From Gammaproteobacteria bacterium (GTDB lineage: Bacteria > Pseudomonadota > Gammaproteobacteria > UWMA-0217), in assembly GCA_027031685.1 (NCBI GenBank), contig JALVPS010000223.1, positions 1 through 39,538 on the forward strand: a DNA stretch of 39,538 bases. Reading direction: 5' to 3'. Each line of letters starts with the position of its first letter. The first letter of the stretch is position 1. Under the pieces are notes generated by a model. The model saw only the letters and a list, made by a program, of their open reading frames with translations. It searched no databases and was not told where the DNA came from. This document shows positions 2 through 37,912 of this stretch, in pieces. Both the position numbers and the translations under genes were made by a program.

Positions 2-1180
2 GGCAGTGGCGCGGGTGGCAGTGGCATCGGGGGCGGCTCGACGATCAACACGCCGCCACGCGTGGATCTGGGCGCCGACCTGACCCGGCGGTCCGGGGCC
101 TATGTGTCGCTGCTGGCCGATGTGCAGGACGATCAGTCGCCATTCTCGCTCACCTACCACTGGGAGCAGGTGGACGGCCCGGCGGTGTCCGGCCTGGATG
201 ACGATGACTCTGAGCTGGCCGGTTTCACGCTGCCCAGGATCTTCAAGCGCGACAGCGGGCCGCAGACGGTGACCCTGCGCCTTACCGTCACTGATCCGGG
301 CGGGCTGTCCGCGTCGGACGAGATCACCATCACCATCGAGCCGGAGTCTTCCGCGCCGTACCGCGAGCGGGTGCAGGTGGGCGGCCCCATCACCCAGGAC
401 ACCACGTGGAGCGGAGACAAGATCTACGAAGCACAGGACAACATCTCCATTCCGGCCGGGGTGAAGCTGACCATCGAGGCCGGCGCCGTGGTGCGTCTGG
501 CCGATGGCAAGAAGCTGCTGGTGGACGGCGAGCTGGTGGCCAACGGGGTCATGAAAGACGGTGAGCCGATTCCGATCGTCTTCACCAACATCCCGGGCTC
601 GCTGGACCTGGACTGGGACGGCATCGAGGTCCGTTCCGGCGGGCATGCCGATCTGCTCCTCGTGGTCATCGAGAAGGCGCTGACCGGCCTGTACATGAAT
701 GGCGGCGGCGTCACCATGGGCAATGTGCTCTTTCAGAACAACATCGTTGGTTTTGATACCGGCGTGACGAAAAAGCAGGTGTCCATGGCCTACAACACCT
801 TCTACCAGAATTTCGAGGGCGTCGACGTTTACATGACCGGCACCAGCGTCATTCATCACAACCTGTTCAAGGGAAACGACTACGCCTTCTTCGAGCTGAG
901 CGGCAGCGACCAGCCGTTCGACGTGCACGACAACAACTTCGTGGACAATGGACATGTGATCACGGCGCGGGAGATCAATGACTTCTATCTGCCGGGGCAG
1001 GCGCGTTTGTACAACAACTGGTGGGGCACCACGGACATGACCGCCATCGAGCGGCTCATCACGGACGCCTACGACGACCCGCGGCTGATGGACATCTCGC
1101 CCACGCCGGCCAGCGCCTACATTCCCACCGCCTGGGCGGGCATCCCGGCCGGGTTCCAGTGGTACAACGACCTGCCATAG
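2..1180 (+). CDS. PKD-like Ig domain + right-handed parallel beta-helix repeat protein, 5' end cut by window edge
   Basis: The frame is open from base 2 (GSGAGGSGIGG..). PKD-like motif TLRLTVTDPGGLSASDEITITIE. It is followed by imperfect beta-helix-type repeats (NNIVGFDTG, NTFYQNFEG, HHNLFKGNDY, HDNNFVDNG). Stop TAG at 1178-1180. Confidence 0.55.
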   Translation, partial: GSGAGGSGIGGGSTINTPPRVDLGADLTRRSGAYVSLLADVQDDQSPFSLTYHWEQVDGPAVSGLDDDDSELAGFTLPRIFKRDSGPQTVTLRLTVTDPGGLSASDEITITIEPESSAPYRERVQVGGPITQDTTWSGDKIYEAQDNISIPAGVKLTIEAGAVVRLADGKKLLVDGELVANGVMKDGEPIPIVFTNIPGSLDLDWDGIEVRSGGHADLLLVVIEKALTGLYMNGGGVTMGNVLFQNNIVGFDTGVTKKQVSMAYNTFYQNFEGVDVYMTGTSVIHHNLFKGNDYAFFELSGSDQPFDVHDNNFVDNGHVITAREINDFYLPGQARLYNNWWGTTDMTAIERLITDAYDDPRLMDISPTPASAYIPTAWAGIPAGFQWYNDLP

Positions 1181-3279: not shown

Positions 3280-3942
3280 TTAGCCATGATCCTGATCCAT
3301 CTTTGACTGCTCCTCGGCCCCTTCCTCCCCCTCCAGCGCCTCCAGGAACGCCATGACGGCCTTCTGCATCTGCCGGGGCCGCTCGCGGTAGAGGGCGATC
3401 AGGCGCTGCAGCTCGGCGCTGTCGGCGGCCACCAGGGCCAGTTCCGGCGGCATGGCCAGGGCGTACACGGGCACTTCCAGGGCCTCGGCCAAGGGTTGCA
3501 GCACGTCCGCCGGCACCTGGTCCGTGCGGCCGTCGAGGATGTCGGTGATGGTCTCCACCGGCACGCCGGAGCGCTCGGCCAGCATCTGCCGCGACAGGCC
3601 GCGGTGGTTCATGAGCACCAGCAGGGCCTTGCCCCACACGTCCGCCGGGCTGCTCACCTCCAGGGTGACGGTCATGGGGGCGGGGGTGACCATCGTTTCC
3701 TCGATGGGTCCGCTCCGATCAGGGAAGTCGATGTCCATCCAGCCCCTTGGTAACCCGATGGCGCTCTCTATGTCTCGCGCCAGCTTCTCCCCGATCCGCT
3801 TCACGCCTTTCAGGCATCTGGACACGTAATCAGGCTGCCTACCAATGGCGTCGGCAAACCGCTTCTGGCTGCCGCGCTTTGGCTTGTATCGCTCCCTGAT
3901 GAGCCAAGCCATGTTCTCGCGCCTGATGTCGTAGATGTCCAT
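3280..3942 (-). CDS. CI-like phage repressor with two XRE-type HTH regions
   Basis: The ATG 3942 start (MDIYDIRRENMAWLI..) is chosen over the longer ORF. HTH-like segments QKRFADAIGRQPDYVSRCLKG and LSRQMLAERSGVPVETITDIL. Divergent from a cro-like gene. Confidence 0.8.
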   Translation of the reverse strand: MDIYDIRRENMAWLIRERYKPKRGSQKRFADAIGRQPDYVSRCLKGVKRIGEKLARDIESAIGLPRGWMDIDFPDRSGPIEETMVTPAPMTVTLEVSSPADVWGKALLVLMNHRGLSRQMLAERSGVPVETITDILDGRTDQVPADVLQPLAEALEVPVYALAMPPELALVAADSAELQRLIALYRERPRQMQKAVMAFLEALEGEEGAEEQSKMDQDHG

Positions 3943-3976
3943 GCCGCAAGTTTCCCCGCCATATACCGCCGGGTAA

Positions 3977-3992
3977 ATGCCCTGCGGGGCAT
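3977..3992. promoter_or_regulatory. candidate operator palindrome ATGCCC-TGCG-GGGCAT
   Basis: 6-bp inverted arms in the cI/cro divergent intergenic region. Confidence 0.3.
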
Positions 3993-3997
3993 GGTTG

Positions 3998-4026
3998 TTG
4001 ACCGTAATGTGACCTAGGGGTAAAGT
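3998..4026 (+). promoter_or_regulatory. candidate rightward early promoter (TTGACC-17 nt-TAAAGT)
   Basis: -35 at 3998-4003 and -10 at 4021-4026. The cro-like ATG is at 4035, so the transcript would be leaderless or nearly so. Confidence 0.35.
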
Positions 4027-4034
4027 TTCTTGGT

Positions 4035-4265
4035 ATGGAAAAGCTACGCGCATATCTGAAGACCCTTTCGCCTGATGATCAGGACGCCTTCGCCAAGCGG
4101 GTTGGCACCACCATCGGCTACCTGCGCAACGCCCTGAGCACGGGCAAGCGGCTGGGGCCGAACCTGGTCATCGCCATCGAGCGCGAGACCAACGGCGCCG
4201 TGCGCTGCGAGGATCTGCGCCCGGATGTGCCCTGGCACGTGCTGAGAGGCTCCGAGGCGGCCTGA
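4035..4265 (+). CDS. Cro / YdaS-like HTH regulator
   Basis: 76 aa, AFAKRVGTTIGYLRNALSTGKRLGPNLVIAIERETNG. Divergent from the repressor. Confidence 0.75.
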   Translation: MEKLRAYLKTLSPDDQDAFAKRVGTTIGYLRNALSTGKRLGPNLVIAIERETNGAVRCEDLRPDVPWHVLRGSEAA

Positions 4266-14843: not shown

Positions 14844-14864
14844 ACGCCCGGAATCGCCCGGCAC

Positions 14865-14896
14865 GGGTGACATTTGTCACCTGTAAAATGTCACCT
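14865..14896 (+). repeat. 32-nt element GGGTGACATTTGTCACCTGTAAAATGTCACCT, copy 1
   Basis: Identical to 35297-35328. Lies between a terminator and the protease/scaffold gene. Confidence 0.95.
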
Positions 14897-14918
14897 CCCG
14901 TGGGCCACCCTGCGGCCC

Positions 14919-26378: not shown

Positions 26379-26725
26379 ACCGCTACCCCGATCTGCCCGT
26401 CGCCTGGGAGTCCCGCCTGCAACGCGAGGACGGCCGCGAGCTGACCGTCACCGCCGGTGGCGTGCTGCGCGGCCGCGACCTGTGGGCCGGCGCCCCGCTG
26501 GTGACCCTGGAGCTGGTGCACCCCTACATCGAGGCCGCAGACGCCACCGCCCTGGAGGCGTTCTACGCCGCCAACCGCAGCACCGAGTTCCTGTACGCCT
26601 GGCCGCTGGACCATAGCGGCCAGCCCCATGACTACCGGGTGCTGTTCGACGGCCCGCCGGAGATCGTCAAGGTAGGCCCGCAGCACTTCACGGCGCGGGT
26701 GCGTCTCAAGGGGCGTCGCACGTGA
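26375..26725 (+). CDS. minor tail protein
   Basis: ATGA overlap; 116 aa. Confidence 0.5.
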   Translation: MNRYPDLPVAWESRLQREDGRELTVTAGGVLRGRDLWAGAPLVTLELVHPYIEAADATALEAFYAANRSTEFLYAWPLDHSGQPHDYRVLFDGPPEIVKVGPQHFTARVRLKGRRT

Positions 26726-29622
26726 GCGGATTGCGCCACAAGACCCCGGCCCGCTATCTGGTGGGCGGGCGGCCGCCCACGGCCACGGGCACGGTGGCCG
26801 CCCACGGCGCCATCGCCCCGGTGGTGTACGGGGTGGCCCGCCTCGATGCGCGCCCGGCCATCGTCACCACCCGTGGCGACACCCTGCTGCTGGCCATCGT
26901 CTGGTGCATCGGCCCCATCGACGCCATCCAGGCCCTCACCATCAACGACCGCCCGCCGCCGTCCGAGGTGGTGGTGCGCCACTACCTGGGCACCCCCGAT
27001 CAGGGGGCGGACCCCGGCCTGCTGGCCGCCGACCCGGCCCTGGACGACACCATGCGCGGCACCATCGCCGGGCAGGACGTGGCCCTGGCCTGGTCGGTGC
27101 TGGAGATACCCGCCGGCGCCGTCAGCGGCTGGCCCCGCGTGGCGGCCACCATCCGGGGGCGCAAGGTGCACGACCCACGCAGCGGGCAGACCGTGTGGAG
27201 CGACAACCCGGCGCTGTGCCTGGCCGACTTCATCGCCTCGCCGGTGTACGGGCAGGGCCGGCCGGTGCGCGGGGTGGCGGCCGCCGCCGACGCCTGCGAC
27301 GAGCTGGTGGGGGGCGCCCACCGGCGGCGCATCGGCCTGGCACTGGACAGCCAGGCGCCGGCCACGCAGTGGGCCGAGACGCTGCGCACCTACGCCGGGG
27401 CCTTCACCGTGCCGGACGGCGACGGGGTGCGCCTGGTGCCGGACCGCCCGGCGGCCCCGGTGGCCACCATCACCGAGGCCAGCATCCTGCCGGACAGCCT
27501 GCGCATCACGCGCCCCTCCCTGCGCGATCAGCCCACCGTGGTGCGGGTGGAGTACACCGACACCGGCAGCCTGCCCTGGCGTACCGCCGCTGCGGTCGCG
27601 ATGGCCCCCGGCGTCGATACCGGCGCCACCCCCTGGCGCGAGGAGCGCATCAGCCTGCCGGGCATCCACGATGGCGCGCAGGCCATGCGCGAGGCGGCCG
27701 AGCGGCTGGCCTCGGCTACCCTGGGCGGCCTGTCGGTGAGCTGGACGCACACCGATGAGGCCCTGGCCCTGCAGGCGGGCGACGTGGTGCGCCTGTCCCT
27801 GCCGTGGCTGGACCGCCTGCTGCGCCTGCTGTCCGTGGAGGCCGACGGCCCCGGCCGCTGGCGCATCGAGGCCGCCGCCTACGACCCGGCCATGTACCCG
27901 GACGACACCAGCGGGGTGACCCTGGAGCTGCCCCCGCCCGTGCCCCGCGCCGACGAGATCGCCGCGCCCACCGTGGGCGGCGTCACGTCCGGCGGCGGGG
28001 TGTACCTGCAGGGGGCGGACGGCACCATCCTCAACCGCGTGCGCGTGGACCTGGCCCCGCCGCCCGATCCGAATCTGGACCACCTGGAAATCCGTTTCCG
28101 CCGCGCCGGCTCCAACGAGCCGTGGCAGGCCGGCACGGTGGAGGGCACCGTGGCCTGGCTGGCGCCGGTGGAGGACGGCGCCCTGTACGAGTTCCAGACC
28201 CGCGCCGTGAGCCGCGCCGGGGCCGTCTCCCCCTGGGTGGACGGCACGCACACCGTGCGCGCCAAGGACGTGCCGCCCCCCGGCGTCACCGGCCTGACCG
28301 TGACCGTCTCCCCCGCCGGCACGCGCAAGATCGCCTTCGCCTACCCCAATCCGCCGGCGGACCTGGCCGGCTTCCGCGTGCAATGGCAGGCCGGCGGCGA
28401 CTGGCAGGAGCTGCTGGACGGCCTCACCCAGCGGCGCCAGATCGAGACCAACGAGATGCCCGCCGGGCAGGTGAGCATCCGCGTGCGCGCCGAGGACCGC
28501 ACCGGCAACGTCTCCGGCTGGGCGACCGTCACCAGCAACATCGCCCAGGGGCCTGACGGCGTGTGGTACGACGTGGACCAGCGCATCGAGACGGAGCGCC
28601 AGCGCAACGACGGGCAGGATGGCACCCTGGTGACCCACGACGGGCGCATCACCACGGAGGCCGGGCGCAACGATGCCCAGGACGGCACGCTGGTGGTGCA
28701 CGACGGCCGCATCACCACCGAATCCGGGCGCAACGACGCGCAGGACGGCTCCCTCGTTTACCACGAGACCAACCTGATCCCGGCCGCGCAGAACACCGCG
28801 AACACGGCGCTGAACAAGGGCACGCACCTTGAGGTGGACGTGATTCCGCCCATCGACACCACGGCGACTACGGCCAAGAACGGCGTGGACCAGATTCAGC
28901 AGCAGGACCTGCCCACCCTGCAGCAGGAAGTGAATGACGTCAGGAACACCACCGAGGACGTGCAGAACCGCACCTTCGTGCTGGAGGGCCGCACCGACGA
29001 CCTGGACAACCGCGTCAACACCGCCCAGGGCAAGGCCGACAACGCCTACGACCGCGCCATCGAGGCCAAGAACGAGGCCATGAACGCCCTCAACGAGGCG
29101 GGCCTGAAAGCGCGGGTGTACTACCAGGGCGCGCCGCCGGGGGGCGCCCATGACGGCGACGTGTGGATCGACACCAGCAACAACTACCACCCCTGGGTGT
29201 ACCGCTACGGCGGCTGGCAGGATGCCTCAGTGCTCCAGGCCGACGTGATCCAGGCCGTGCACGTGGCCGCCTCCGCCATCCTGGCCGAGCACATCGCCGC
29301 CGGGGCCATCACGGCGGAGAAGATCGGGGCCGGCGAGATCAAGGCCGTGCACCTGGACGTCCAGAGGCTGGACGCCATCACTGCCAACCTGGGCTATGTC
29401 ACCGCCGGCACGCTGGCTGGCCCGGAGCGGTGGATTCAGCTCGGCGGCGGGGAGTTCCTGCGGGCGAACAAGAACGGGGCCGGTATGTTCATCGTGGACG
29501 CCAATGGGGCGACGTGGACACGTGATCTTTACGTCTGGGGGCGGTGGTACAGGAGGACCGCGCAGGGCTGTCTTTTCGATTATGAAGGGTACAAGAAACT
29601 TGAAGGAAACGAGGGGTGCTGA
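26722..29622 (+). CDS. host-specificity / central tail fibre protein (lambda J-like)
   Basis: 966 aa with a J-like N-terminal region, an FN3-like segment, 21-aa tandem repeats and a coiled-coil C-terminus. Confidence 0.75.
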   Translation: MSGLRHKTPARYLVGGRPPTATGTVAAHGAIAPVVYGVARLDARPAIVTTRGDTLLLAIVWCIGPIDAIQALTINDRPPPSEVVVRHYLGTPDQGADPGLLAADPALDDTMRGTIAGQDVALAWSVLEIPAGAVSGWPRVAATIRGRKVHDPRSGQTVWSDNPALCLADFIASPVYGQGRPVRGVAAAADACDELVGGAHRRRIGLALDSQAPATQWAETLRTYAGAFTVPDGDGVRLVPDRPAAPVATITEASILPDSLRITRPSLRDQPTVVRVEYTDTGSLPWRTAAAVAMAPGVDTGATPWREERISLPGIHDGAQAMREAAERLASATLGGLSVSWTHTDEALALQAGDVVRLSLPWLDRLLRLLSVEADGPGRWRIEAAAYDPAMYPDDTSGVTLELPPPVPRADEIAAPTVGGVTSGGGVYLQGADGTILNRVRVDLAPPPDPNLDHLEIRFRRAGSNEPWQAGTVEGTVAWLAPVEDGALYEFQTRAVSRAGAVSPWVDGTHTVRAKDVPPPGVTGLTVTVSPAGTRKIAFAYPNPPADLAGFRVQWQAGGDWQELLDGLTQRRQIETNEMPAGQVSIRVRAEDRTGNVSGWATVTSNIAQGPDGVWYDVDQRIETERQRNDGQDGTLVTHDGRITTEAGRNDAQDGTLVVHDGRITTESGRNDAQDGSLVYHETNLIPAAQNTANTALNKGTHLEVDVIPPIDTTATTAKNGVDQIQQQDLPTLQQEVNDVRNTTEDVQNRTFVLEGRTDDLDNRVNTAQGKADNAYDRAIEAKNEAMNALNEAGLKARVYYQGAPPGGAHDGDVWIDTSNNYHPWVYRYGGWQDASVLQADVIQAVHVAASAILAEHIAAGAITAEKIGAGEIKAVHLDVQRLDAITANLGYVTAGTLAGPERWIQLGGGEFLRANKNGAGMFIVDANGATWTRDLYVWGRWYRRTAQGCLFDYEGYKKLEGNEGC
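28594..28767 (+). repeat. 63-nt tandem repeat x2.8 (E-x-GRNDAQDGTLVxHDGRITT)
   Basis: Read directly in the J-like gene. Confidence 0.85.
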
Positions 29623-30221
29623 TGCCTTACTGGATCGCCATCATTGATGAGCAGGACCACATCGTCAGCAACGACATCCTGCCGGACGACCTGCCCCTGG
29701 AGAACCACGAGCTGCCGGCGGGCCGTACCGCCGTGCGCTCCGACTTCCCGGCCCCCAATCCCTTCGAGCACGTCATCGACCGCAGCACCGGCGCGCCTCG
29801 CGTGGTGGAGCGCGTGCCCCCGCTGGAGGAGATCAGGGAAGAAGGCCAGTACAAGGTGGATCGCATGGCCGGCGGCGCCCGCTCGCGCATCATCACCACC
29901 GTGCCCGGCCAGGCGGAGACGTACCTGGCCAAGGAGCGCGAGGCGCGGGACTGGCTGGCGGCGGAGGCGGCCGGCGACCAGCCGGTGCTGGCCGACTATC
30001 CCATGCTGCAGGCGGAGACGGCCGTGACCGGCCAGAGCGCCACGGAGGCGGCGCAGGCCATCGTCGCCAGGGCGGACCAGTGGCGCGTGCTGGGGGCGCG
30101 CATCGAGCGCGTGCGCCGACAGGGCAAGCTGGACATCGAGGCCGCCCCTGACGCGGCGGGGGTGGAGGCCGTCATCGAGCGCGTGCAGGCTGAGCTGCAG
30201 ACCATCATCACGGGAGGCTGA
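29622..30221 (+). CDS. tail fibre assembly / chaperone-like protein
   Basis: TGATG overlap. N-terminus MPYWIAIIDEQDHIVSN, typical of the small proteins that sit next to fibre genes. Confidence 0.4.
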   Translation: MPYWIAIIDEQDHIVSNDILPDDLPLENHELPAGRTAVRSDFPAPNPFEHVIDRSTGAPRVVERVPPLEEIREEGQYKVDRMAGGARSRIITTVPGQAETYLAKEREARDWLAAEAAGDQPVLADYPMLQAETAVTGQSATEAAQAIVARADQWRVLGARIERVRRQGKLDIEAAPDAAGVEAVIERVQAELQTIITGG

Positions 30222-30226
30222 CGACA

Positions 30227-33200
30227 ATGGCACTGATCGCCCGCTGGCAGTTCGACGAGGGCAGCGGCACCACGGCCGCCGGCAGCGCCGGCAGCGAGCC
30301 GGCCTGCTCGCTCATCGGCAGCGTCGGCTGGACCGCCGGCAAGTTCGGCCAGGCCATCCACGTGCCGCAGGACAGCGGCGCCCGTGGCGAGGTGGCGCAG
30401 TGGACCGGCTTCCAGAGCGCGCAGACGACGTTCTCCTACGCCGCATGGGTCAAGATGGACACCTGGACCGGCTCGCCCATCCTGGCCGTGGTGTCCGTGC
30501 CGTATGCCGCTGGCGACTGGCGGCGGGCCTTCCAGATCAGGGTGGCCCATTGGGACGGCACCATCATGGTGACGCTCTACGACGGGTCCAGCCATCAAAT
30601 CTTCGGCGGCAAGGCCATCAACGACGGTCAGTGGCACCATGTGGCCGTCACCTATGACGGCAGCACGGCGAAGCTGTACGTGGACGGCGACCCAGATGGC
30701 AGCATGGCCCTGTCGGGCTTTTCCGCGCCCTACACCGGCGAGGCCATCCAGGTGGCCGGCGACCGCAACGGCGCCAGCGACAGCCTGGCCGGCGCCCTGG
30801 ACGACCTGCGCATCTACGACCACGCCCTGAGCCAGAGCGAGATCCAGGGCCTGCTCAACCCCGTCACCGTGCTGGCCGGCGCCGATGCCACCCTGGGCCT
30901 CGACGCCACCGCCGGGGCCGTGGCCGTGCGCCACCAGCTGGCCGCCGTCTCCGCCGCCGCCGACACCACCGCCGGCGTGGGCGGGCTGGGGCAGCGCCAT
31001 GAGCTGGCCGGCCCGTCCGCCGCCGCCGACCTGACCGCCACCAGCGGCGCCCTCGTGCAGCGCCAGCGGCTCGCCGGCGCGGGCGCCACTGGCGACACCG
31101 GCGCCACCACCGGCCTGCTGCAACAGCTGCAGCGCCTGGCCGCGGCGGCCGCCGTGGCCAGCGCCCTCACCATGCCCGCCGCCGCCCTCACGCAGCGGCA
31201 CGGCCTGGCCGACGGCGCCCCCATCGTGCCCACCGCCGCCAGCGTGGCCGGTCTCGGCCAGCGGCACGAACTGGTGGGATTGGCCGCCGCCGCCGCCACC
31301 GAGGCCCCCGGCGCGGCCCTCACCCAACGGCACGCCCTGGGCGGGGCTGGCGTGGTGGTGGATGGCGCGGCCAACGGGGGCGCCCTGGGGCAGCGGCACG
31401 GGCTGGTGGGATGTGACGTCCTGGTATACAGCAACGCTGACTCGCAAGTCTGGCCGCTGACCATCGATGGGCAGACCAGCGGCGCGCAGCTTGGGTATAG
31501 ATGGATTATAGGTGACCTCATTGAGGTGCCGGACATCTCGCGCTCCTACCGGCTATCGGCCCTGTTGCGCCAGCGCACAGCGCCGGGGGCCGACCCCGAT
31601 TCCGATCCGCGCCACTATGCGGGTTTCTCCTGCTATGACGCTGATGTAAAAAGCATTTTTCCGCGTAATTTCTACATCCCAAACCCGGCCACCATGACCC
31701 GACTGGCGCAGCCGCTCGATTATGGCGACACCGAGATCGTGCTGGAGAGCACCGCCGGGTGGTCCACCGATATGCACTTCTTCTTTGCCGCCTATGGCTA
31801 CACCGACGGTCAGGGGCGCACCTATCCCGATTGGTACTACACCCGAGACCTCTTCTATTTGTTCAACCGGGCGAGCATTGACGGCAACCGCCTGGTTCTC
31901 TCCAAGCCGTGGTTGGGTCCACGCAAGCCGGCCGGCACGGCGGTGGCCAATACGCGGAATGCCAGTACCTACAACTATGTTCTGCGCGCATATAAGACGT
32001 TGCCGAGTGATTGGCGCCGATACGAGGCGCTTATCAAAGGGGAGCAGCCGTCAGTGCACGGGGTCTACTTCATCAATTTCCGCCCTGCCACACGCTTTGT
32101 ATCGCCCGTGTTGGGCGTTAATTACTGGGGCCCGCATACCATCGTCGAGTGGGACGGATGGGAGCTGGCTTCCGACGGCCCGCTCGCCCAACGCCATGGC
32201 CTGGCCGCCCCTTATGCCACCCTCGACACCGCCGCCGACCCCGGCCCGCTGGCCCAGTCCCATGCCCTGGCCGCGCCGGGGGCGGTGGCCGACCTGCAGG
32301 CGGACGCCGGCGCCATTCCCGTCCAGACCCATGTGCTGGCCCCGGCGGGGGTGTCCGCGCCCCTGCTGGCCGATGGCGGCGCGCTGGGGCAGCGCCACGG
32401 CCTGGCCGCCCTGTTCGCCGTGCTCACGGTGGCGGCGGACGGCGGCGGCGTCACGCCCACCCACGCCCTGGTGGGCGGCCCGCTCACCCTGAGCCTGGAT
32501 GCGGACACGGGCGCCCTGCGCCAGCACCAGCGCCTGGCCGGCGAGAACGCCACCATCGGCCTCTACCCCTGGCGCGAGGGGCTGGGCCAGACCCACGTGC
32601 TGGCCCCCGCGGCCCTGGCCGCCGACGGGGCGGCGGACGGCGGCCCGCTCGGCCAGCCGCTGCCGCTGGCGGGTGTCGGCGGCGAGCTGGCCACGGCCGC
32701 CGATGCCGGCCCGGCGCGGCAGGATCACGCCCTGGCCGCCACCGGCCCGACCGTGGAGGCCACCGCCACCGCCGACGGGCTGGGCCAGCGCCACGCCTTC
32801 GCCGGCGCGGGCGCCCAGGCCGGCAGCGACGCCACGGCCGGCCCCCTGGGCCAGCGCCATGCCCTGCAGGATGGCGGGGCCGTCACCACGCCCCAGGCCA
32901 CCACCGGCGCCGTCCTGCCCACCCACGTGCTGGCCCCCTGGCCCATGGTGGTGGAGACCGGCTCCCTCAATCCCGAGCTGATCGAGCACCACCTGCTGGC
33001 CGCCCTGCCGGCGGAGACGGCCACGGTGGTGCCCGGCCTGCGCCTCACCCAGCGCCACCCCCTGGCCGGGGCCGGGGCCGAGCTGCCCCTGCAGGCCGAC
33101 AGCGCCCCGCTCAGCCAGCGCCAGCGGCTCGCCGCCAGCCCGGCCGTGGTGGACACCGCGGCCGATGGGGGTGCGCTGGGGCAGGCCCACCGCCTGGCCG

Positions 33201-35302
33201 GGGCGGATGCGCGCGCCGACGCCGTGCACCCCCTGCCGGCCCTCACGCAGCGCCACGGCCTGGCGGGGCAGGGCGCGGCGAGCACGCCCGAGGCCGCCGC
33301 CGGGGCGCTGGTGCAGACCCACGTGCCCGCCCCGCACGCCCTGCGCGTGACCCCCGAGGCCACGGGCGGCGCACTGGTACAGTCCCACGCCCTGGCGGGC
33401 GGTGCGCTGGCCGCCGGCCTCACCGTGGCCGATGGCGCACTGGCCCTGCGCCACCTGCTGGCCGGCGTGTGGGCCGCGCTGGATGCCGCAGCCGGGCAGG
33501 GCGGGCTCACCCAGCGGCACGCCCTGGCCGGCCTATCCGTGATCTTCGAGACAGAGATCCCGGGCAGCCGCATCCATATCGGCTATCCCCTCAAGTCCGA
33601 CGGCTGGCAGGTGGACACCGCCGCCGACACGGGCCCGCTGGCGCCCGTGCACGCCCTGGCCGCCCAGGCCGTGGCCGCCACCGTCGAGGCGGCCGGCGGG
33701 GCGCTGGTGCAGCACCACGGCCTGCAGGGCCTCCCCGCCGCGGCAGACAACGGCGTCGGCACCGGGGCCCTCGTCCAGACCCACCCGCTGGCCGCCACCG
33801 GCGCCACCGCCGAGGGCCTGGCCGACGCCGGCCCCGTCACCCCCGTGCACGCCCTGGCCGGGGCCGCCGCCAGCGCCGGGACCGCGGCCGATGCCGGGCC
33901 GCTCGGCCAGCGCCACCACCCCGCCGCCCCCGGCGCCGCCGCGGACGCCCTGGCCGATGCCGGCCCGCTGGGCCAGCGCCACGCCCTGCAGCCGGCCCCG
34001 GCCGGGGTGGACCTGCGCCCGGACACCGGCGCCCTCAGCGCCCTGCACCGCCTGCAGGGGGCGGACGCCGCCAGCGCCACCGTCCTGCCGCGCCCGGCGC
34101 TCATCCAGCGGCACGGCCTGGCCGGCACCGGCGCGACGGCGGACACCGCGGCCGCCACCGGCCCCCTCGATCAGCGCCATGCCATCGCCCTCGCCGCCGC
34201 CACCAGCGACACCACGGCCGACGCCGCCCCCGTGGGCCAGCGCCACCGGCTCACCGCCATCGGCGGCAACACCGACCTGCGCGCCGACACCGCCCACCTG
34301 GGCCAGCACCACCGCCTGACCGGGCAGGACGCCGCCGCGCCCCTCATTGCCGTGGCCGACCGCCTGCGCCAGCACCACCCGCTGGCCGGTCTCGATGCCG
34401 CCGTGGACAGCGCCGCCGACGCTGGCGCCCTGACCCCCGAGCATCGCCTGGCCGCCCCCGGCGCCAGCGTGGACAGCACCGCACCGGCCGCCGCCCTCGT
34501 CCAGACTCACCCGCTGGCGGCGGCGGGCGCCACGGTCGAGGCCATCGCCGACGCGGCCCCCCTCGTGCAGCGCCACGCCCTGCGGGACGACGGCCTGACG
34601 GTGGATGCCCCCGCCGCCGCCGGTGCCGCCATCCAGCGCCACGAACTGGCCGGCGCGCCGTCGGTCACCGACCTGGCCGCCGATGCCGTTGCCCTCGTCC
34701 AGCGCCACGATCTGGCCGCCCCGGCCGCCGACACCGCCCTGCAGGCCGCCGCCGGTGCCCTCGTCCAGCACCACCCCCTGGCCGCCGCCGGGGCAGAGGC
34801 AGACAGCGCCGCCGCCACCGGCGCCCTGGTGCAACACCAGGTGCTGGCTGCCGCCGCCGTCGAGACGCGCCTGCAGGCCGCCGCCGGCCCCGTCACGCCG
34901 CGCCACCTGCTGGGCGGCGCGCCGGTCGCCACCGGGCTGGCCGCCGGCCTCGGCCCCCTCGTGCAGCACCAGATGCTGGCCGGCGCGGAGGCCGCCAGCG
35001 AGGCCGTCGCCACCGCCGCCCGCCTCGTCCAGCGCCACCTCGCGGACGGGCAGGGCGCCGTCATCGAGGCCGCCATGCCCGGCCTGCCCATCGCCCAGCG
35101 GCAGACCCTGGCCGCCCCCGGCGCGCAGGCCGACACGGCCGCCGCCACGGGCGCCCTGGTGCAGGACCATCACCTGGTAGATGCCGGGCTGGAAGTCGCC
35201 CTGGAAGTGAGCATCATCGGCTTCGAGCTCAACACCGACGTGCTCAGCGTGGAAGTCGTCACCGCCCGCAAATGGGTGGTGCCGGACCGGCGGCGGGGGT
35301 GA
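30227..35302 (+). CDS. giant tail fibre-like protein: LamG-like lectin domain, about 50 Q-x-H-x-L-A repeats, central globular domain
   Basis: N-terminus WQFDEGSG..WHHVAVTYDGSTAKLYVDGD..LDDLRIYDHALSQSEIQGL (Laminin_G_3 pattern), then a 21-22-aa periodic repeat. Confidence 0.75.
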   Translation: MALIARWQFDEGSGTTAAGSAGSEPACSLIGSVGWTAGKFGQAIHVPQDSGARGEVAQWTGFQSAQTTFSYAAWVKMDTWTGSPILAVVSVPYAAGDWRRAFQIRVAHWDGTIMVTLYDGSSHQIFGGKAINDGQWHHVAVTYDGSTAKLYVDGDPDGSMALSGFSAPYTGEAIQVAGDRNGASDSLAGALDDLRIYDHALSQSEIQGLLNPVTVLAGADATLGLDATAGAVAVRHQLAAVSAAADTTAGVGGLGQRHELAGPSAAADLTATSGALVQRQRLAGAGATGDTGATTGLLQQLQRLAAAAAVASALTMPAAALTQRHGLADGAPIVPTAASVAGLGQRHELVGLAAAAATEAPGAALTQRHALGGAGVVVDGAANGGALGQRHGLVGCDVLVYSNADSQVWPLTIDGQTSGAQLGYRWIIGDLIEVPDISRSYRLSALLRQRTAPGADPDSDPRHYAGFSCYDADVKSIFPRNFYIPNPATMTRLAQPLDYGDTEIVLESTAGWSTDMHFFFAAYGYTDGQGRTYPDWYYTRDLFYLFNRASIDGNRLVLSKPWLGPRKPAGTAVANTRNASTYNYVLRAYKTLPSDWRRYEALIKGEQPSVHGVYFINFRPATRFVSPVLGVNYWGPHTIVEWDGWELASDGPLAQRHGLAAPYATLDTAADPGPLAQSHALAAPGAVADLQADAGAIPVQTHVLAPAGVSAPLLADGGALGQRHGLAALFAVLTVAADGGGVTPTHALVGGPLTLSLDADTGALRQHQRLAGENATIGLYPWREGLGQTHVLAPAALAADGAADGGPLGQPLPLAGVGGELATAADAGPARQDHALAATGPTVEATATADGLGQRHAFAGAGAQAGSDATAGPLGQRHALQDGGAVTTPQATTGAVLPTHVLAPWPMVVETGSLNPELIEHHLLAALPAETATVVPGLRLTQRHPLAGAGAELPLQADSAPLSQRQRLAASPAVVDTAADGGALGQAHRLAGADARADAVHPLPALTQRHGLAGQGAASTPEAAAGALVQTHVPAPHALRVTPEATGGALVQSHALAGGALAAGLTVADGALALRHLLAGVWAALDAAAGQGGLTQRHALAGLSVIFETEIPGSRIHIGYPLKSDGWQVDTAADTGPLAPVHALAAQAVAATVEAAGGALVQHHGLQGLPAAADNGVGTGALVQTHPLAATGATAEGLADAGPVTPVHALAGAAASAGTAADAGPLGQRHHPAAPGAAADALADAGPLGQRHALQPAPAGVDLRPDTGALSALHRLQGADAASATVLPRPALIQRHGLAGTGATADTAAATGPLDQRHAIALAAATSDTTADAAPVGQRHRLTAIGGNTDLRADTAHLGQHHRLTGQDAAAPLIAVADRLRQHHPLAGLDAAVDSAADAGALTPEHRLAAPGASVDSTAPAAALVQTHPLAAAGATVEAIADAAPLVQRHALRDDGLTVDAPAAAGAAIQRHELAGAPSVTDLAADAVALVQRHDLAAPAADTALQAAAGALVQHHPLAAAGAEADSAAATGALVQHQVLAAAAVETRLQAAAGPVTPRHLLGGAPVATGLAAGLGPLVQHQMLAGAEAASEAVATAARLVQRHLADGQGAVIEAAMPGLPIAQRQTLAAPGAQADTAAATGALVQDHHLVDAGLEVALEVSIIGFELNTDVLSVEVVTARKWVVPDRRRG

Positions 35303-35328
35303 CATTTGTCACCTGTAAAATGTCACCT
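35297..35328 (+). repeat. 32-nt element GGGTGACATTTGTCACCTGTAAAATGTCACCT, copy 2
   Basis: Identical to 14865-14896. Contains the fibre gene stop (35300-35302). Confidence 0.95.
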
Positions 35329-35384
35329 GCGCCGCCCGATCATCGGGTCTCCAGACTACCGACCGCCCCTTGGAGACCCGACCC

Positions 35385-35768
35385 ATGGCAAAGGCATACA
35401 ACGCAGTCGTCTACGACAACGGCCTGAACTACTTCAAGAACAACTGTGACAAGATCATCGTCACCGACGGCGTGCCCAACATCAACGACTACGCCGCCAC
35501 CGTCGGCATGAAGGCCGCCGAGGCCGACGTGACCCCGGCCACCTTCACCATCGCCGCCAACGGCGCCGGCCGCAAGATCAGCCACGGCGCGGTGGACGGC
35601 ACCGTCACCGCCTCCACCAGCGGCAACAACGACCTGCACATCGCCTACCTCGACACCACCAACAGCACCGTGCTGGCCATCACCGACGAGACCACCAACC
35701 AGCCGCTCACGGCCGGCAACCCCGTCACCTTCCCGCCCATCGAGTACAAGTTCAACGCGCCCGTCTAG
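35385..35768 (+). CDS. hypothetical late protein (127 aa)
   Basis: ATG 35385 lies 9 nt after GGAG; coding-like composition. Confidence 0.6.
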   Translation: MAKAYNAVVYDNGLNYFKNNCDKIIVTDGVPNINDYAATVGMKAAEADVTPATFTIAANGAGRKISHGAVDGTVTASTSGNNDLHIAYLDTTNSTVLAITDETTNQPLTAGNPVTFPPIEYKFNAPV

Positions 35769-36685: not shown

Positions 36686-37771
36686 CTACGCCGCCGCCTT
36701 CCCGTGCGACTCCCCGCACAGCGGGCAGGGCAGCCCCTGAACCACCAGCGCCTCGCGCAACCAGTCCGGCCGCTCCGGCAGCCGCCCCTTCATCTCCTTG
36801 CGCCACCTGCGTGCCACCGCCGGCGTCCACGGCAGACCCGCGCCGATCACCTCCCGGTTGATGAACTCCCGCAGCTCCGCGCGGAAGGCCAGGAAATTGG
36901 AGAGATCCTCCCTGATCCGCTCCAGCTCCTCCTCGATCACCGGCAGGTGCGCCGTCGTCAGCTCCGCCAGCGAGCGCACCCGGCACAGCACCCGCAGCCG
37001 GTTCGCCACGTGCTCGCGCGCCCCGCCCTGGCTGCCCAGCCCGGCCACCGCCGCCGCCATCGCGTGCGCCAGCTCCTCCCGCTGCCGGAACGAAAGCGGC
37101 TCGCCACCGGCCGCCTCCGGCGCGGGCGCCGCCACGGACCGCCCGCCCTCGCCGGCCGGGATGTACTCCCCCTCCAGCACCACCTTCTCCAGCAGCTCCC
37201 CGGCCACCGCCATCGCCTGCGGAATCTGATCCGGCGTCAGCTGCTCCAGACTCTCGATACCCAGGCGCAGATTCACAATCGCATGCGCCTCGTCGTAGCC
37301 CAGCTTGCGCCCACGCGCCTCGGCCACCTTCACCACCCGGCGGATGGCCTTCACCAGCGGCTCGCGCTGCGCCTTCGTGGCGTGGGGGAGGGGCTTGGGG
37401 GGTTCCTCCGGCTGGGCTTTCTTCACCACCTGGCCGTTCCAGTAGCGCCAGAGCACCTCATCGCACTCGTCCTGGTAGCGCTCCAGCTTCTCGCGCACCT
37501 CCGGCTTGACCTTGGCCGGACTGATGGACATGAGCCAGCCGGGGAGCTTGCGCAGGGGGAGGCAGAGCATCTCGCGTTTCTTGCCGTCCTGGGCAACCGT
37601 TGGCATAAGCCAACACTTCCAACGAGGCTCCTTGAGCTTGGTGGATTGTCGTCCCCAGTCTATGCCCAGCGCGTCGCAGATCGGCCGGGCCGGGGTGTAA
37701 GGCTCGTGGTTGTGCTCGACGAGATAGAGGGTGTCGTCGTGGAAGGTGACGGGGATAAGGGATTGGTTCAT
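36686..37771 (-). CDS. phage antirepressor (P22 Ant N-terminal domain type)
   Basis: ATG 37771 after AGGAGA. LIPVTFHDDTLYLV..PICDALGIDW..LCLPLRKLPGWLMSISPAKV. Confidence 0.75.
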   Translation of the reverse strand: MNQSLIPVTFHDDTLYLVEHNHEPYTPARPICDALGIDWGRQSTKLKEPRWKCWLMPTVAQDGKKREMLCLPLRKLPGWLMSISPAKVKPEVREKLERYQDECDEVLWRYWNGQVVKKAQPEEPPKPLPHATKAQREPLVKAIRRVVKVAEARGRKLGYDEAHAIVNLRLGIESLEQLTPDQIPQAMAVAGELLEKVVLEGEYIPAGEGGRSVAAPAPEAAGGEPLSFRQREELAHAMAAAVAGLGSQGGAREHVANRLRVLCRVRSLAELTTAHLPVIEEELERIREDLSNFLAFRAELREFINREVIGAGLPWTPAVARRWRKEMKGRLPERPDWLREALVVQGLPCPLCGESHGKAAA

Positions 37772-37912
37772 GTCGGTTCTCCTGGCTTGAGGTTCGAGAA
37801 CCGCCACGCCTTTCCTGCCAGCAAAAGGGTGGCGGAGTGCGCGGGTTGGCAGACCGGGCCAGGGACCGGCGGGCCTTGCGGCCCCCCACGCACCCCACCA
37901 TTAAACGGGCAC

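Follow-up and report, generated by a model that had tools for sequence, protein, structure and literature searches.

A 1691-residue protein encoded in the window – a 39,538-nucleotide stretch of gammaproteobacterial DNA (GenBank assembly GCA_027031685.1, contig JALVPS010000223.1), taken at its full length – is probably the rope of a bead-chain (‘chain-like’) phage fibre, with g132, the product of the small gene downstream, as its threaded bead. The proposal is made by analogy with fibres of known structure, and four observations carry it: the protein is built from 22-aa units with an 11-aa component, the same repeat recurs in a family of proteins, genes of this family are linked to genes related to g132, and the modelled g132 fold matches that of known virion proteins. 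From these we infer how the beads would dock, their stoichiometry, the polarity of the fibre and its site of attachment.

Within the tail module the gene follows those for the tape measure and a gpJ-like protein (Table 1), which is in keeping with the fibre-like protein proposed for this locus in the earlier note. The ORF has the boundaries first given for it, and its GC3 of 0.91 is typical of coding sequence on the contig. A homologue of the 201-aa ORF that precedes it was sought in viral rope loci and none was found. Neither g111 nor g201 matches Gp77 (Pfam PF23148) at E <= 1, g111 has no BLASTP match to gp77, and a six-frame search of the genome with Gp77 gave only a 17-bit match on another contig, at the noise level of controls; no Gp77-type adaptor was found on the contig.

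Table 1. Features of the proposed rope locus (coordinates are those of the window).
Feature	Coordinates	Strand	Basis or remark
gpJ-like central tail fibre / host-specificity protein, upstream of the rope gene	26722..29622	+	PHROG 31, E = 1.6e-44; Pfam Phage-tail_3
201-aa ORF between the gpJ-like gene and the rope gene	29616..30221	+	PHROG 32459 (unknown function), E = 3e-18
Whole ORF of the proposed rope protein (bead-chain fibre)	30227..35302	+	1691 aa
LamG / concanavalin-A-like lectin domain, aa 65-207	30419..30847	+	Pfam Laminin_G_3
Repeat block 1, 8 units of 22 aa (one of 23 aa), aa 224-400	30896..31426	+	His anchoring
Non-repetitive insert, aa 401-644 (244 aa)	31427..32158	+	Tyr/Trp/Asn-rich
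Repeat block 2, 46 units, aa 645-1657, 44 in perfect 22-aa register	32159..35197	+	His anchoring
Degenerate unit, aa 1108-1129, ETEIPGSRIHIGYPLKSDGWQV	33548..33613	+	Lacks the Q-x-H core, register kept
C-terminal non-repeat tail, 34 aa, ALEVSIIGFELNTDVLSVEVVTARKWVVPDRRRG	35198..35299	+	Candidate anchor to the phage tail
Intergenic spacer; GGAG Shine-Dalgarno (35372-35375) inside an inverted repeat, two TGTCACCTG copies	35303..35384	+	Sequence reading
g132, 127 aa, ATG at 35385, proposed bead subunit	35385..35768	+	Fold, linkage

By His anchoring the protein contains 54 repeat units, eight with their histidine at residues 236-391 and 46 with it at residues 657-1648. An array of about 53 units of 21-22 aa in three blocks had been described previously; the array stands, but the count is 54, the period is strictly 22 aa (two units have 23 aa), and there are two blocks, of 8 and 46 units, with 44 consecutive units free of insertions and deletions. 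The ‘short insert’ SVIFETEIPGSRIHIGYPLKSDGWQV proves to be one degenerate unit at residues 1108-1129 that keeps the register (1098 to 1142 = 2 x 22), and the non-repetitive domain of about 250 aa that was said to interrupt the array was recovered as an insert of 244 aa. Units of the two blocks are as alike (amino acid identity 0.365) as units within block 2 (0.352), and we therefore regard them as one array interrupted by the insert. The consensus is D-T-A-A-D-A-G-A-L-x-Q-R-H-x-L-A-G-A-G-A-x-A, with core residues L15 (49/54), H13 (45/54), Q11 (43/54) and L9 (43/54); H13 is replaced by Q in 7/54 units. Hydropathy autocorrelation gives a 22-aa period (z = 13.9) and, more weakly, an 11-aa one (z = 3.7), and a DNA pattern of three Q-x-H-x-L cores spaced 66 nt apart matches seven times in the window against 0.00 expected.

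The divergence of the units at the DNA level, as reported earlier, is clear: nucleotide identity between units averages 54% and reaches at most 76% (38.5% out of register), mean amino acid identity is 35%, and a search for a higher-order period among the units found none. These data support the view that the units are old and diverged, and that their length is under strong constraint. With 2.6 Gly and 1.5 Pro per unit, a continuous helix is ruled out and a strand-turn-strand-turn arrangement is well suited; an alpha-helical hendecad coiled coil was rejected on the same grounds. Read from its residues, the 22-aa unit would correspond to two 7-residue strands, or half-sites, 11 aa apart. This agrees with the approximately 10-12 residues per bead monomer expected of a rope, an agreement in spacing only and not in binding.

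The N-terminal domain at residues 65-207 passes the gathering score of PF13385 Laminin_G_3 (97.3 bits vs 27.6, E = 1.2e-27), confirming the LamG domain assigned in the earlier note, and its matches among PDB sequences are the LamG modules of S-layer proteins and an arabinanase. We propose that it forms the distal ‘head’ of the rope, because A1002 gp39 has a distal N-terminus and a C-terminal anchor (PMC13730344). The insert is a globular module with a G+C content of 0.60, compared with 0.80 for the array, and its residues 428-611 share 27-33% identity with a module in Herelleviridae proteins of Bacillus and Enterococcus phages (tblastn, E about 1e-9), these being tail-fibre and minor structural proteins. 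It has no match in Pfam, PHROG or PDB sequences, and no long relatives were found by a word-index search of a 5.8-billion-protein set. The 34-aa C-terminal tail is a candidate anchor to the phage tail.

Searches of Pfam, PHROGs, NCBIfam and PDB sequences assigned the repeat to no named family, as the earlier note had anticipated from inspection. In the word-index search of the 5.8-billion-protein set the whole protein returned LamG only among the matches listed and its C-terminal 562 aa returned none; megablast of the region against deposited phages and a search of IMG/VR with peptide patterns from the 1691-aa protein were also negative, and the repeat is absent from 40/40 related genomes examined. 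Ala-rich words saturate the word index, and the family was recovered by an exhaustive HMMER profile search, which yielded 353 cluster representatives in which a core spacing of 22 aa was counted 591 times. None of the other family members examined has an in-register run as long as the 46 units of the window (median 9, otherwise a maximum of 29). Family members share an architecture of varied N-terminal heads followed by repeats and a short C-terminal tail – the same polarity as A1002 gp39 – with 40-79 aa between the last core and the C-terminus in 88/150 members, and tails that are diverse and often basic. Hydrophobic positions across the family are 4, 9, 15 and 20, and many members have H-x-H and Q-x-H motifs 11 aa apart inside a single unit; the core varies to H-x-H at the same period in sister variants, and to Q-x-Q in some relatives. 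Members that differ greatly in composition share conserved positions 9, 11, 13 and 15 and the exact unit length. Since core and length are kept in the window despite 54% nucleotide identity between units, selection on a defined structure or interface is indicated.

Rope-like genes and g132-like genes occur together whichever is used as the starting point. Among 83 viral loci that hold a repeat ORF, fetched purely by the DNA pattern of three repeat cores, 61 contain a g132-like ORF on the same strand, and most of these ORFs lie directly beside the repeat ORF, 4-20 nt away. In the reverse test, a g132 subgroup alone fetched 388 contigs, of which 48 loci have adequate flanks; a repeat chain (at least four units of 22/23-aa [Q/H]-x-[H/Q], within 4.5 kb and on the same strand) is present in 38 of the 48, compared with 6/579 for the opposite-strand ORF control. 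In cellular genomes a g132-like ORF is adjacent to 5/8 true arrays. The window has the adjacency expected of a bead-on-rope pair, with the rope gene stop at 35302 and the g132 start at 35385 in the same orientation. Programmed read-through between bead and rope genes was considered and given little weight, the junctions having ordinary Shine-Dalgarno and start sites; bead and rope share a frame in 13/21 abutting pairs (p = 0.007), these loci being related to each other. The TGTCACCTG motif in the spacer was likewise discounted as a regulatory element, its frequency across the window being not above chance.

This linkage bears on another account of the array, in which it is a flexible, largely disordered Ala/Gly/Pro-rich spacer keeping the LamG and middle domains at a distance from the tail, the periodicity is a relic of amplification, and g132 has an unrelated function. 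The low-complexity composition of the units (Ala 5.8, Gly 2.6, Pro 1.5) and a disordered linker region in the AlphaFold2 model of another family member, L114, are compatible with such a spacer. The account is nonetheless hardly credible, given a g132 linkage far above control, the retention of positions 9, 11, 13 and 15 and of exact unit length across very different compositions, and the persistence of that conservation with only 54% nucleotide identity between units.

g132 is present in a single copy in the genome, and its family alignment holds 47 sequences. The AlphaFold2 model (pLDDT 91, pTM 0.82) has a helix at residues 7-20 followed by strands. A Foldseek comparison with the PDB gave four chains at a probability of at least 0.99 and TM 0.58-0.75, with the next match at 0.05 or below. 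These are Sf14 9C39_K, Bas63 9MT4_K and 9MT4_L, and 7-7-1 9RKV_A; the whisker chains of Bas63 and Sf14 match with probability 1.00 and TM 0.60-0.75, and the 139-aa chain of 9RKV with probability 0.99 and TM 0.58-0.63. As modelled, g132 has the features of the whisker/Gp80-like structural class, namely a length of approximately 110-170 aa and an N-terminal helix plus incomplete beta-sandwich. Its matches in BFVD are small ‘minor tail’ or ‘tail’ proteins. At the sequence level g132 has no match to Pfam PF23140 Gp80 at E <= 0.1 and a six-frame search of the genome gave none at E <= 1; weak Gp80 matches occur in 5/47 g132 family members (best E 2e-3), compared with 140 bits for GP4 gp80 itself.

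The identity of this neighbour also weighs on the possibility that the protein is a trimeric intertwined beta-fibre – a triple beta-helix or spiral – in which the Q-x-H or H-x-H motifs of three chains bind an axial metal and g132 is a chaperone or tip protein. HxH motifs coordinate metal (iron) in the T4 gp37 needle and in the spike tips of P2 and phi92, true H-x-H motifs occur at the same period in the sister variants, and the gene has the position of a tail-fibre gene. However, the motif in the window is Q-x-H (Q11 in 43/54 units, Q for H13 in 7/54) and that of some relatives Q-x-Q, which would make a poor metal site; no similarity to any solved trimeric fibre was found, and the g132 fold is that of structural virion beads rather than of known fibre chaperones. 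We consider a trimeric fibre very unlikely.

An autonomous single-chain beta-solenoid or beta-roll shaft is a somewhat better candidate, although we still judge it unlikely. Each unit would form a single coil, made of two strands and two turns, with L9, Q11, H13 and L15 of the first strand and positions 20, 22, 2 and 4 of the second facing inward as a Gln/His ladder, and g132 would be a cap, a decoration or an assembly factor. Unit length is strictly conserved over 44 units, the strand-turn-strand-turn pattern has a fixed length with Gly, Asp and Pro in the turns – which recalls two-sided beta-rolls – and the alternation of the conserved residues is that expected of a single strand face. Set against this, repeat profiles built from the 1691-aa protein and from the family as a whole match no PDB chain, and neither a solved nor a predicted solenoid was matched; large hydrophobics would be scarce in the core, with only two Leu per 22 aa in the window and Gln and His buried; and the obligate neighbour, a protein with a rope-riding fold, is left unexplained. 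The sole model of a family rope – that of L114, a natural read-through tether of rope and bead, whose rope variant lacks Pro and Gly – formed no solenoid, which is a weak test. In that model the bead has pLDDT 85-95 and the rope is helical with pLDDT 65-80, there is no sign of docking, the linker is disordered, and the rope alignment depth is almost nil. The solenoid or beta-helix with an inward His/Gln ladder, as originally suggested for this protein, is thus not the best reading: no test favours it, and the bead-fold neighbour and the 11-aa half-sites favour a rope. The spacing of the half-sites equals the per-monomer spacing implied by the descriptions of Bas63 and A1002.

As a rope, the protein would be a single extended polypeptide. 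Half-site 1 of each unit would comprise positions 9-15 (phi-x-Q-x-H-x-phi) and half-site 2 positions 20-4 (phi-x-small-x-small-x-phi), separated by two 4-residue turns rich in Gly, Pro and Asp. Each g132 monomer is envisaged, after Bas63, as an incomplete beta-sandwich with a groove that a rope strand would fill, completing the sandwich. As the monomers would pair into dimers, one dimer is expected per 22-aa unit, and the 53 intact units could accommodate some 50 dimers, equivalent to about 100 beads. With 27 Å per dimer, as reported for A1002 (PMC13730344), the fibre would measure roughly 0.15 µm, with the LamG lectin domain as its distal head and the 244-aa insert as a second globular module at an intermediate position. 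At the tail tip, beside the gpJ-like protein, the short C-terminal tail may serve as its anchor.

A broader reading is quite possible, and we hold it tentatively: that the 22-aa [Q/H]-x-[H/Q] repeat is the signature of a very large rope family, unnamed in the libraries searched, in which repeat number sets fibre length in the manner of a tape measure, with the window encoding its longest known member – a fibre at a siphophage tail tip with approximately 100 beads of one 127-aa protein, a lectin head, a second module and a length of about 0.15 µm. On that view, bead-chain fibres would be widespread among tailed phages as tunable organelles of host recognition, and more than the neck ornaments of a few. 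Units of 22 = 2 x 11 aa beside a gene of Gp80/whisker fold would make such fibres recognisable from sequence alone in hundreds of uncultivated phages, with the repeat count predicting bead number and fibre length, and pairs annotated as a ‘hypothetical repeat protein’ and a ‘hypothetical 13-kDa protein’ would become virion parts. The arrangement would also constitute a modular scaffold, with varied heads on an adjustable rope, of possible use for studying host range in laboratory phages. The window is of value as the extreme case of the family, in a tail-tip context.

Bead-on-rope fibres have been known, through cryo-EM, only since 2023 and from a handful of phages (GP4, VP1, A1002, Bas63 and Sf14), whose ropes have little or no sequence periodicity. 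That the repeat might map to a known kind of fibre, a possibility raised in the earlier note, holds by analogy – the rope of a chain-like fibre – and fails for sequence membership: hmmsearch found no similarity between the repeat and KPP25 proteins, including the KPP25/A1002 dock region, or GP4 proteins, including gp79. In Fiber I of the Ralstonia podophage GP4, gp80 dimers are described, in the accounts available through later papers, as riding a separately encoded rope with gp77 as fibre-tail adaptor (PDB 8JOU; via PMC13730344, PMC12609058). As proposed for the window, a small bead gene stands beside a separate periodic rope-like gene, several beads share one rope, and the small subunit is a structural virion protein. 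The gene adjoining gp80, gp79, has a 20/10-aa period (z = 5.9 and 4.8), from which we infer that it encodes the rope. The two systems differ in that g132 and gp80, and the repeats and gp79, lack sequence similarity, and Pfam Gp80 and Gp77 are unmatched in the window. By the same accounts the GP4 fibre holds 5 dimers, compared with 54 units here, and docks at a podophage collar, whereas the window gene follows gpJ in a siphophage-type tail module.

The Pseudomonas podophage A1002 has a nozzle-rope, gp39, and fibre dimers of gp40 and gp41 that attach by beta-sheet augmentation (PMC13730344). This rope is anchored by its C-terminus, and its distal N-terminus carries a globular Ig-like domain at the end (PMC13730344), a polarity that we also propose for the window; rope and bead genes of this type are adjacent in both (in the relative KPP25 they are ORF005 to ORF007). 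About 268 dock residues serve 11 dimers (PMC13730344), or about 24 aa per dimer. The A1002 rope, however, is part of a nozzle protein, its dock region is almost without sequence periodicity (z = 2.7), and two kinds of bead make up its 11 dimers, whereas a single bead gene accompanies the 54 strictly periodic units of the window.

The best fold matches of g132 come from the collar-whisker complexes of the myophages Bas63 (PDB 9MT4, PMC12609058) and Sf14 (PDB 9C39, PMC11821841). In Bas63, whisker dimers wrap a collar ‘rope’ in beads-on-a-string fashion, the rope completes the incomplete sandwiches, and the whisker is closest to GP4 Fiber-1 (PMC12609058). In both phages each monomer has a groove that the rope threads, completing the sandwich of that monomer. 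We estimate that the four Bas63 monomers occupy an N-terminal extension of about 45 residues, or approximately 11 rope residues per monomer. Unlike in the window, there are only two dimers per rope, the rope extends the N-terminus of an Ig-like collar protein located at the neck, and Sf14 gp30 has no Q-x-H motif. The gp30 N-terminus has strand-like segments roughly 11 aa apart with no shared motif, which is suggestive only.

In the Agrobacterium myophage 7-7-1 (PDB 9RKV, PMC12796354) a small protein with a fold like that of g132 decorates the tail fibres; the 139-aa chain of 9RKV probably corresponds to gp014, the homodimeric ‘garland’ protein, whose number is next to that of gp015, the long tail-fibre protein, just as g132 adjoins the rope gene. 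This case departs from our model in that no rope is described and the dimers form a garland around the baseplate (PMC12796354). The ‘bead-chain’ neck fibre of A-1(L) was set aside as a parallel, being built on another principle, of trimers joined head to tail. Several of the known bead-on-rope systems occupy the neck or collar (Bas63, Sf14) or the nozzle (A1002), whereas the gene in the window follows a gpJ-like tail-tip gene.

The structural genes of the contig form a lambda-like module, and their order puts the repeat gene in the usual place of a side tail fibre gene. Because the contig also encodes a Cro/CI-type HTH protein and a P22-type antirepressor, the gene content suggests that the phage is temperate. 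The product of the left-end ORF may be another tail spike or depolymerase-type protein of this phage.

Features of the contig around and including the repeat gene
Feature	Coordinates	Strand	Remarks
Left-end ORF	62-1180	+	PKD-like and right-handed beta-helix (NosD-like) domains
Low-G+C segment	2001-4000		G+C 0.57, markedly below ~0.70 elsewhere
Cro/CI-type HTH gene	3280-4053	-	In the region of the low-G+C segment
Large terminase, portal, protease, E-type major capsid protein			First in module order
Tape measure protein			1168 aa; after capsid genes
gpJ-like protein	26722-29622		After tape measure
201-aa ORF			No assigned function; between gpJ-like and repeat genes
Repeat ORF	30227-35302	+	1691 aa
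Array-splitting insert	31427-32158	+	aa 401-644; G+C 0.60 versus 0.80
g132 (132-aa ORF; 127 aa from the ATG at 35385)	35385-35768	+	Directly after repeat gene, with g111
g111 (111-aa ORF)			After repeat gene, with g132
P22-type antirepressor	36686-37807	opposite	End of listed order

The repeat ORF is real, with the codon-position G+C of a coding frame in this contig, and the LamG domain described in the earlier note is Pfam Laminin_G_3 (aa 65-207, E = 1.2e-27). Anchoring units on the repeat histidine in the region behind this domain gives 8 units (His 236 to 391) followed by 46 (His 657 to 1648), all of 22 aa apart from two exceptions of 23 aa, with an indel-free run of 44 consecutive units and the consensus D-T-A-A-D-A-G-A-L-x-Q-R-H-x-L-A-G-A-G-A-x-A. 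Hydropathy autocorrelation at lag 22 is strong (z = 13.9), and a DNA pattern of three cores 66 nt apart has 7 matches in the window versus 0.00 expected. The periodic array is as first described, but it has two blocks rather than three, the supposed short insert being a single degenerate unit that keeps perfect register. Units of the two blocks are equally alike, and the repeats are one array broken by a single 244-aa insert. The units have indeed diverged, with a mean nucleotide identity of 54% and a maximum of 76%, and no higher-order period was found in the array. The insert has no Pfam or PDB match; its aa 428-611 share 27-33% identity with a module that Herelleviridae of Bacillus and Enterococcus carry in tail-fibre or minor structural proteins, a few of which are annotated as phosphodiesterase tail proteins. 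The insert has the appearance of a globular module imported part-way along the protein.

That the repeat belongs to no named family holds: Pfam, PHROGs and NCBIfam name the LamG part only, and neither a window-unit nor a family-wide profile matched any PDB chain. An exhaustive HMMER search with a profile of two units (44 aa) nevertheless recovers 353 cluster representatives at E <= 1e-3 (119 at E <= 1e-10), which vary widely in composition (e.g. EVDTPTLTQNHQLTVTEITSNS and VLDTPALGQEHDLTAVDISTTP) and keep the core and period constant. Q-x-H-x-[LVIFM] cores are spaced by 22 aa 591 times and by 44 aa 187 times, and there is a 23-aa subfamily; sister variants that keep the 22-aa period have an H-x-H core ('LxVADAxHAHxADNLxL') or a Q-x-Q core (viral loci L171, L187, L191, L200 and L150, for example). 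A typical member, 400-600 aa long, starts with an N-terminal domain that varies, continues with about 9 units and ends in a short C-terminal tail; the 46-unit in-register run in the window is the longest among the members examined, against a family median of 9 and maximum of 29.

Hydrophobic residues fall family-wide at unit positions 4, 9, 15 and 20; position 7 is Pro or Gly, positions 10 and 17 hold a small residue or Gly, and 5 and 19 are Asp or Gly. On this pattern the unit reads as a strand (9-15, phi-x-Q-x-H-x-phi), a turn, a second strand (20-4) and another turn. The window repeat also has an 11-aa periodic component (z = 3.7). Because H-x-H and Q-x-H sit 11 aa apart inside one unit in many relatives, the sequences suggest an 11-aa half-site duplicated within the unit.

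The repeat gene has a regular neighbour. Viral contigs were fetched with no other criterion than the repeat DNA pattern (119 or more loci), and many of them contained homologues of g132. A g132-like ORF lies in the same orientation in 61 of 83 viral loci with a repeat ORF; in most of these the two ORFs abut, the g132-like one usually lying immediately upstream and in some loci downstream, the order seen in the window. The reverse search removes ascertainment bias: 388 viral contigs were fetched by one g132 subgroup alone, and 38 of the 48 loci with adequate flanks hold a repeat chain (four or more [Q/H]-x-[H/Q] units at 22- or 23-aa spacing) on the same strand within 4.5 kb, compared with 6 of 579 opposite-strand control ORFs. 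In cellular genomes (MAGs of several phyla) the partner adjoins 5 of 8 true arrays.

At the junctions, abutting pairs (L004-L118) share a reading frame in 13 of 21 cases (binomial p = 0.007, several loci being related to each other), often with one stop codon between and with ordinary Shine-Dalgarno sequences and start codons; such pairs are probably tightly coupled in translation, not expressed by read-through. In the window, the spacer of 82 nt that precedes g132 (35303-35384) contains two exact copies of TGTCACCTG, at 35307 and 35321, and an inverted repeat, GGGTCTCCA...TGGAGACCC, with a GGAG Shine-Dalgarno inside. The 9-mer clusters in a similar way at the protease gene start (14864-14897); across the whole window the motif count is not above chance.

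By sequence g132 falls in no family, with only 5 of the 47 sequences in its alignment weakly matching Pfam Gp80 and 6 PHROG 240; Pfam Gp80 and Gp77 have no match in the window, and a search for a Gp77-type adaptor on the contig was negative. An AlphaFold2 model from the 47-sequence alignment (pLDDT 91, pTM 0.82) has four Foldseek matches in the PDB at probability 0.99-1.00 (TM 0.58-0.75) – Sf14 neck chain K, Bas63 connector chains K and L, and a 139-aa chain of the 7-7-1 tail-fibre entry – and every other PDB match is at 0.05 or less. In BFVD the model matches small 'minor tail' or 'tail' proteins.

The repeats could build a two-sided beta-solenoid or a metal-binding trimer, both of which leave unexplained an obligate neighbour with a rope-riding fold. 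The earlier note is partly supported, in that the protein is fibre-like and its units have diverged; no result favours its solenoid or beta-helical form, and a better explanation, which we favour with moderate confidence, is that the repeat protein is the rope, an extended peptide, of a bead-chain fibre in which g132 is the bead. At 27 Å per dimer, the value for podophage A1002, 54 units would make a fibre of ~0.15 µm, compared with a tail of perhaps ~0.18 µm predicted from the 1168-aa tape measure at 1.5 Å per residue. An AlphaFold2 model of a natural read-through rope-bead tether (L114) has a folded bead and no sign of docking, its Pro/Gly-free rope units, for which the alignment had almost no depth, being drawn as long helices (pLDDT 65-80). 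This AT-rich relative (IMG/VR, 405-1625) has a ~265-aa rope, no head domain, and units 'AQQxNKAL...QxHxL' without Pro or Gly.

Known systems account for the g132 matches to Bas63, Sf14 and 7-7-1 chains: in Bas63, whose whisker is structurally closest to Fiber-1 gp80 of Ralstonia phage GP4, whisker dimers are described as wrapped around the collar 'rope' in the manner of beads on a string, and the rope threads a groove in every monomer, filling out a sandwich that is otherwise incomplete (PMC12609058). We estimate about 11 aa of Bas63 rope per monomer. GP4 gp79 (MH638294, 27948-28925, minus strand), directly after gp80, is Gly/Ala-rich, with periodicities of 20 aa (z = 5.9) and 10 aa (z = 4.8) over ~220 residues, and is a candidate for the published GP4 'rope'. 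The repeat has no sequence similarity to the solved ropes. In A1002, 11 dimers ride on the gp39 dock region of ~268 residues by beta-augmentation, spaced by ~24 aa per dimer (PMC13730344), close to the 22-aa unit with its 11-aa component in the window, and the polarity of the repeat family – head, repeats and short tail – agrees with that of gp39. Bead-chain fibres are already known, and what is new here would be an extreme variant at the tail tip.
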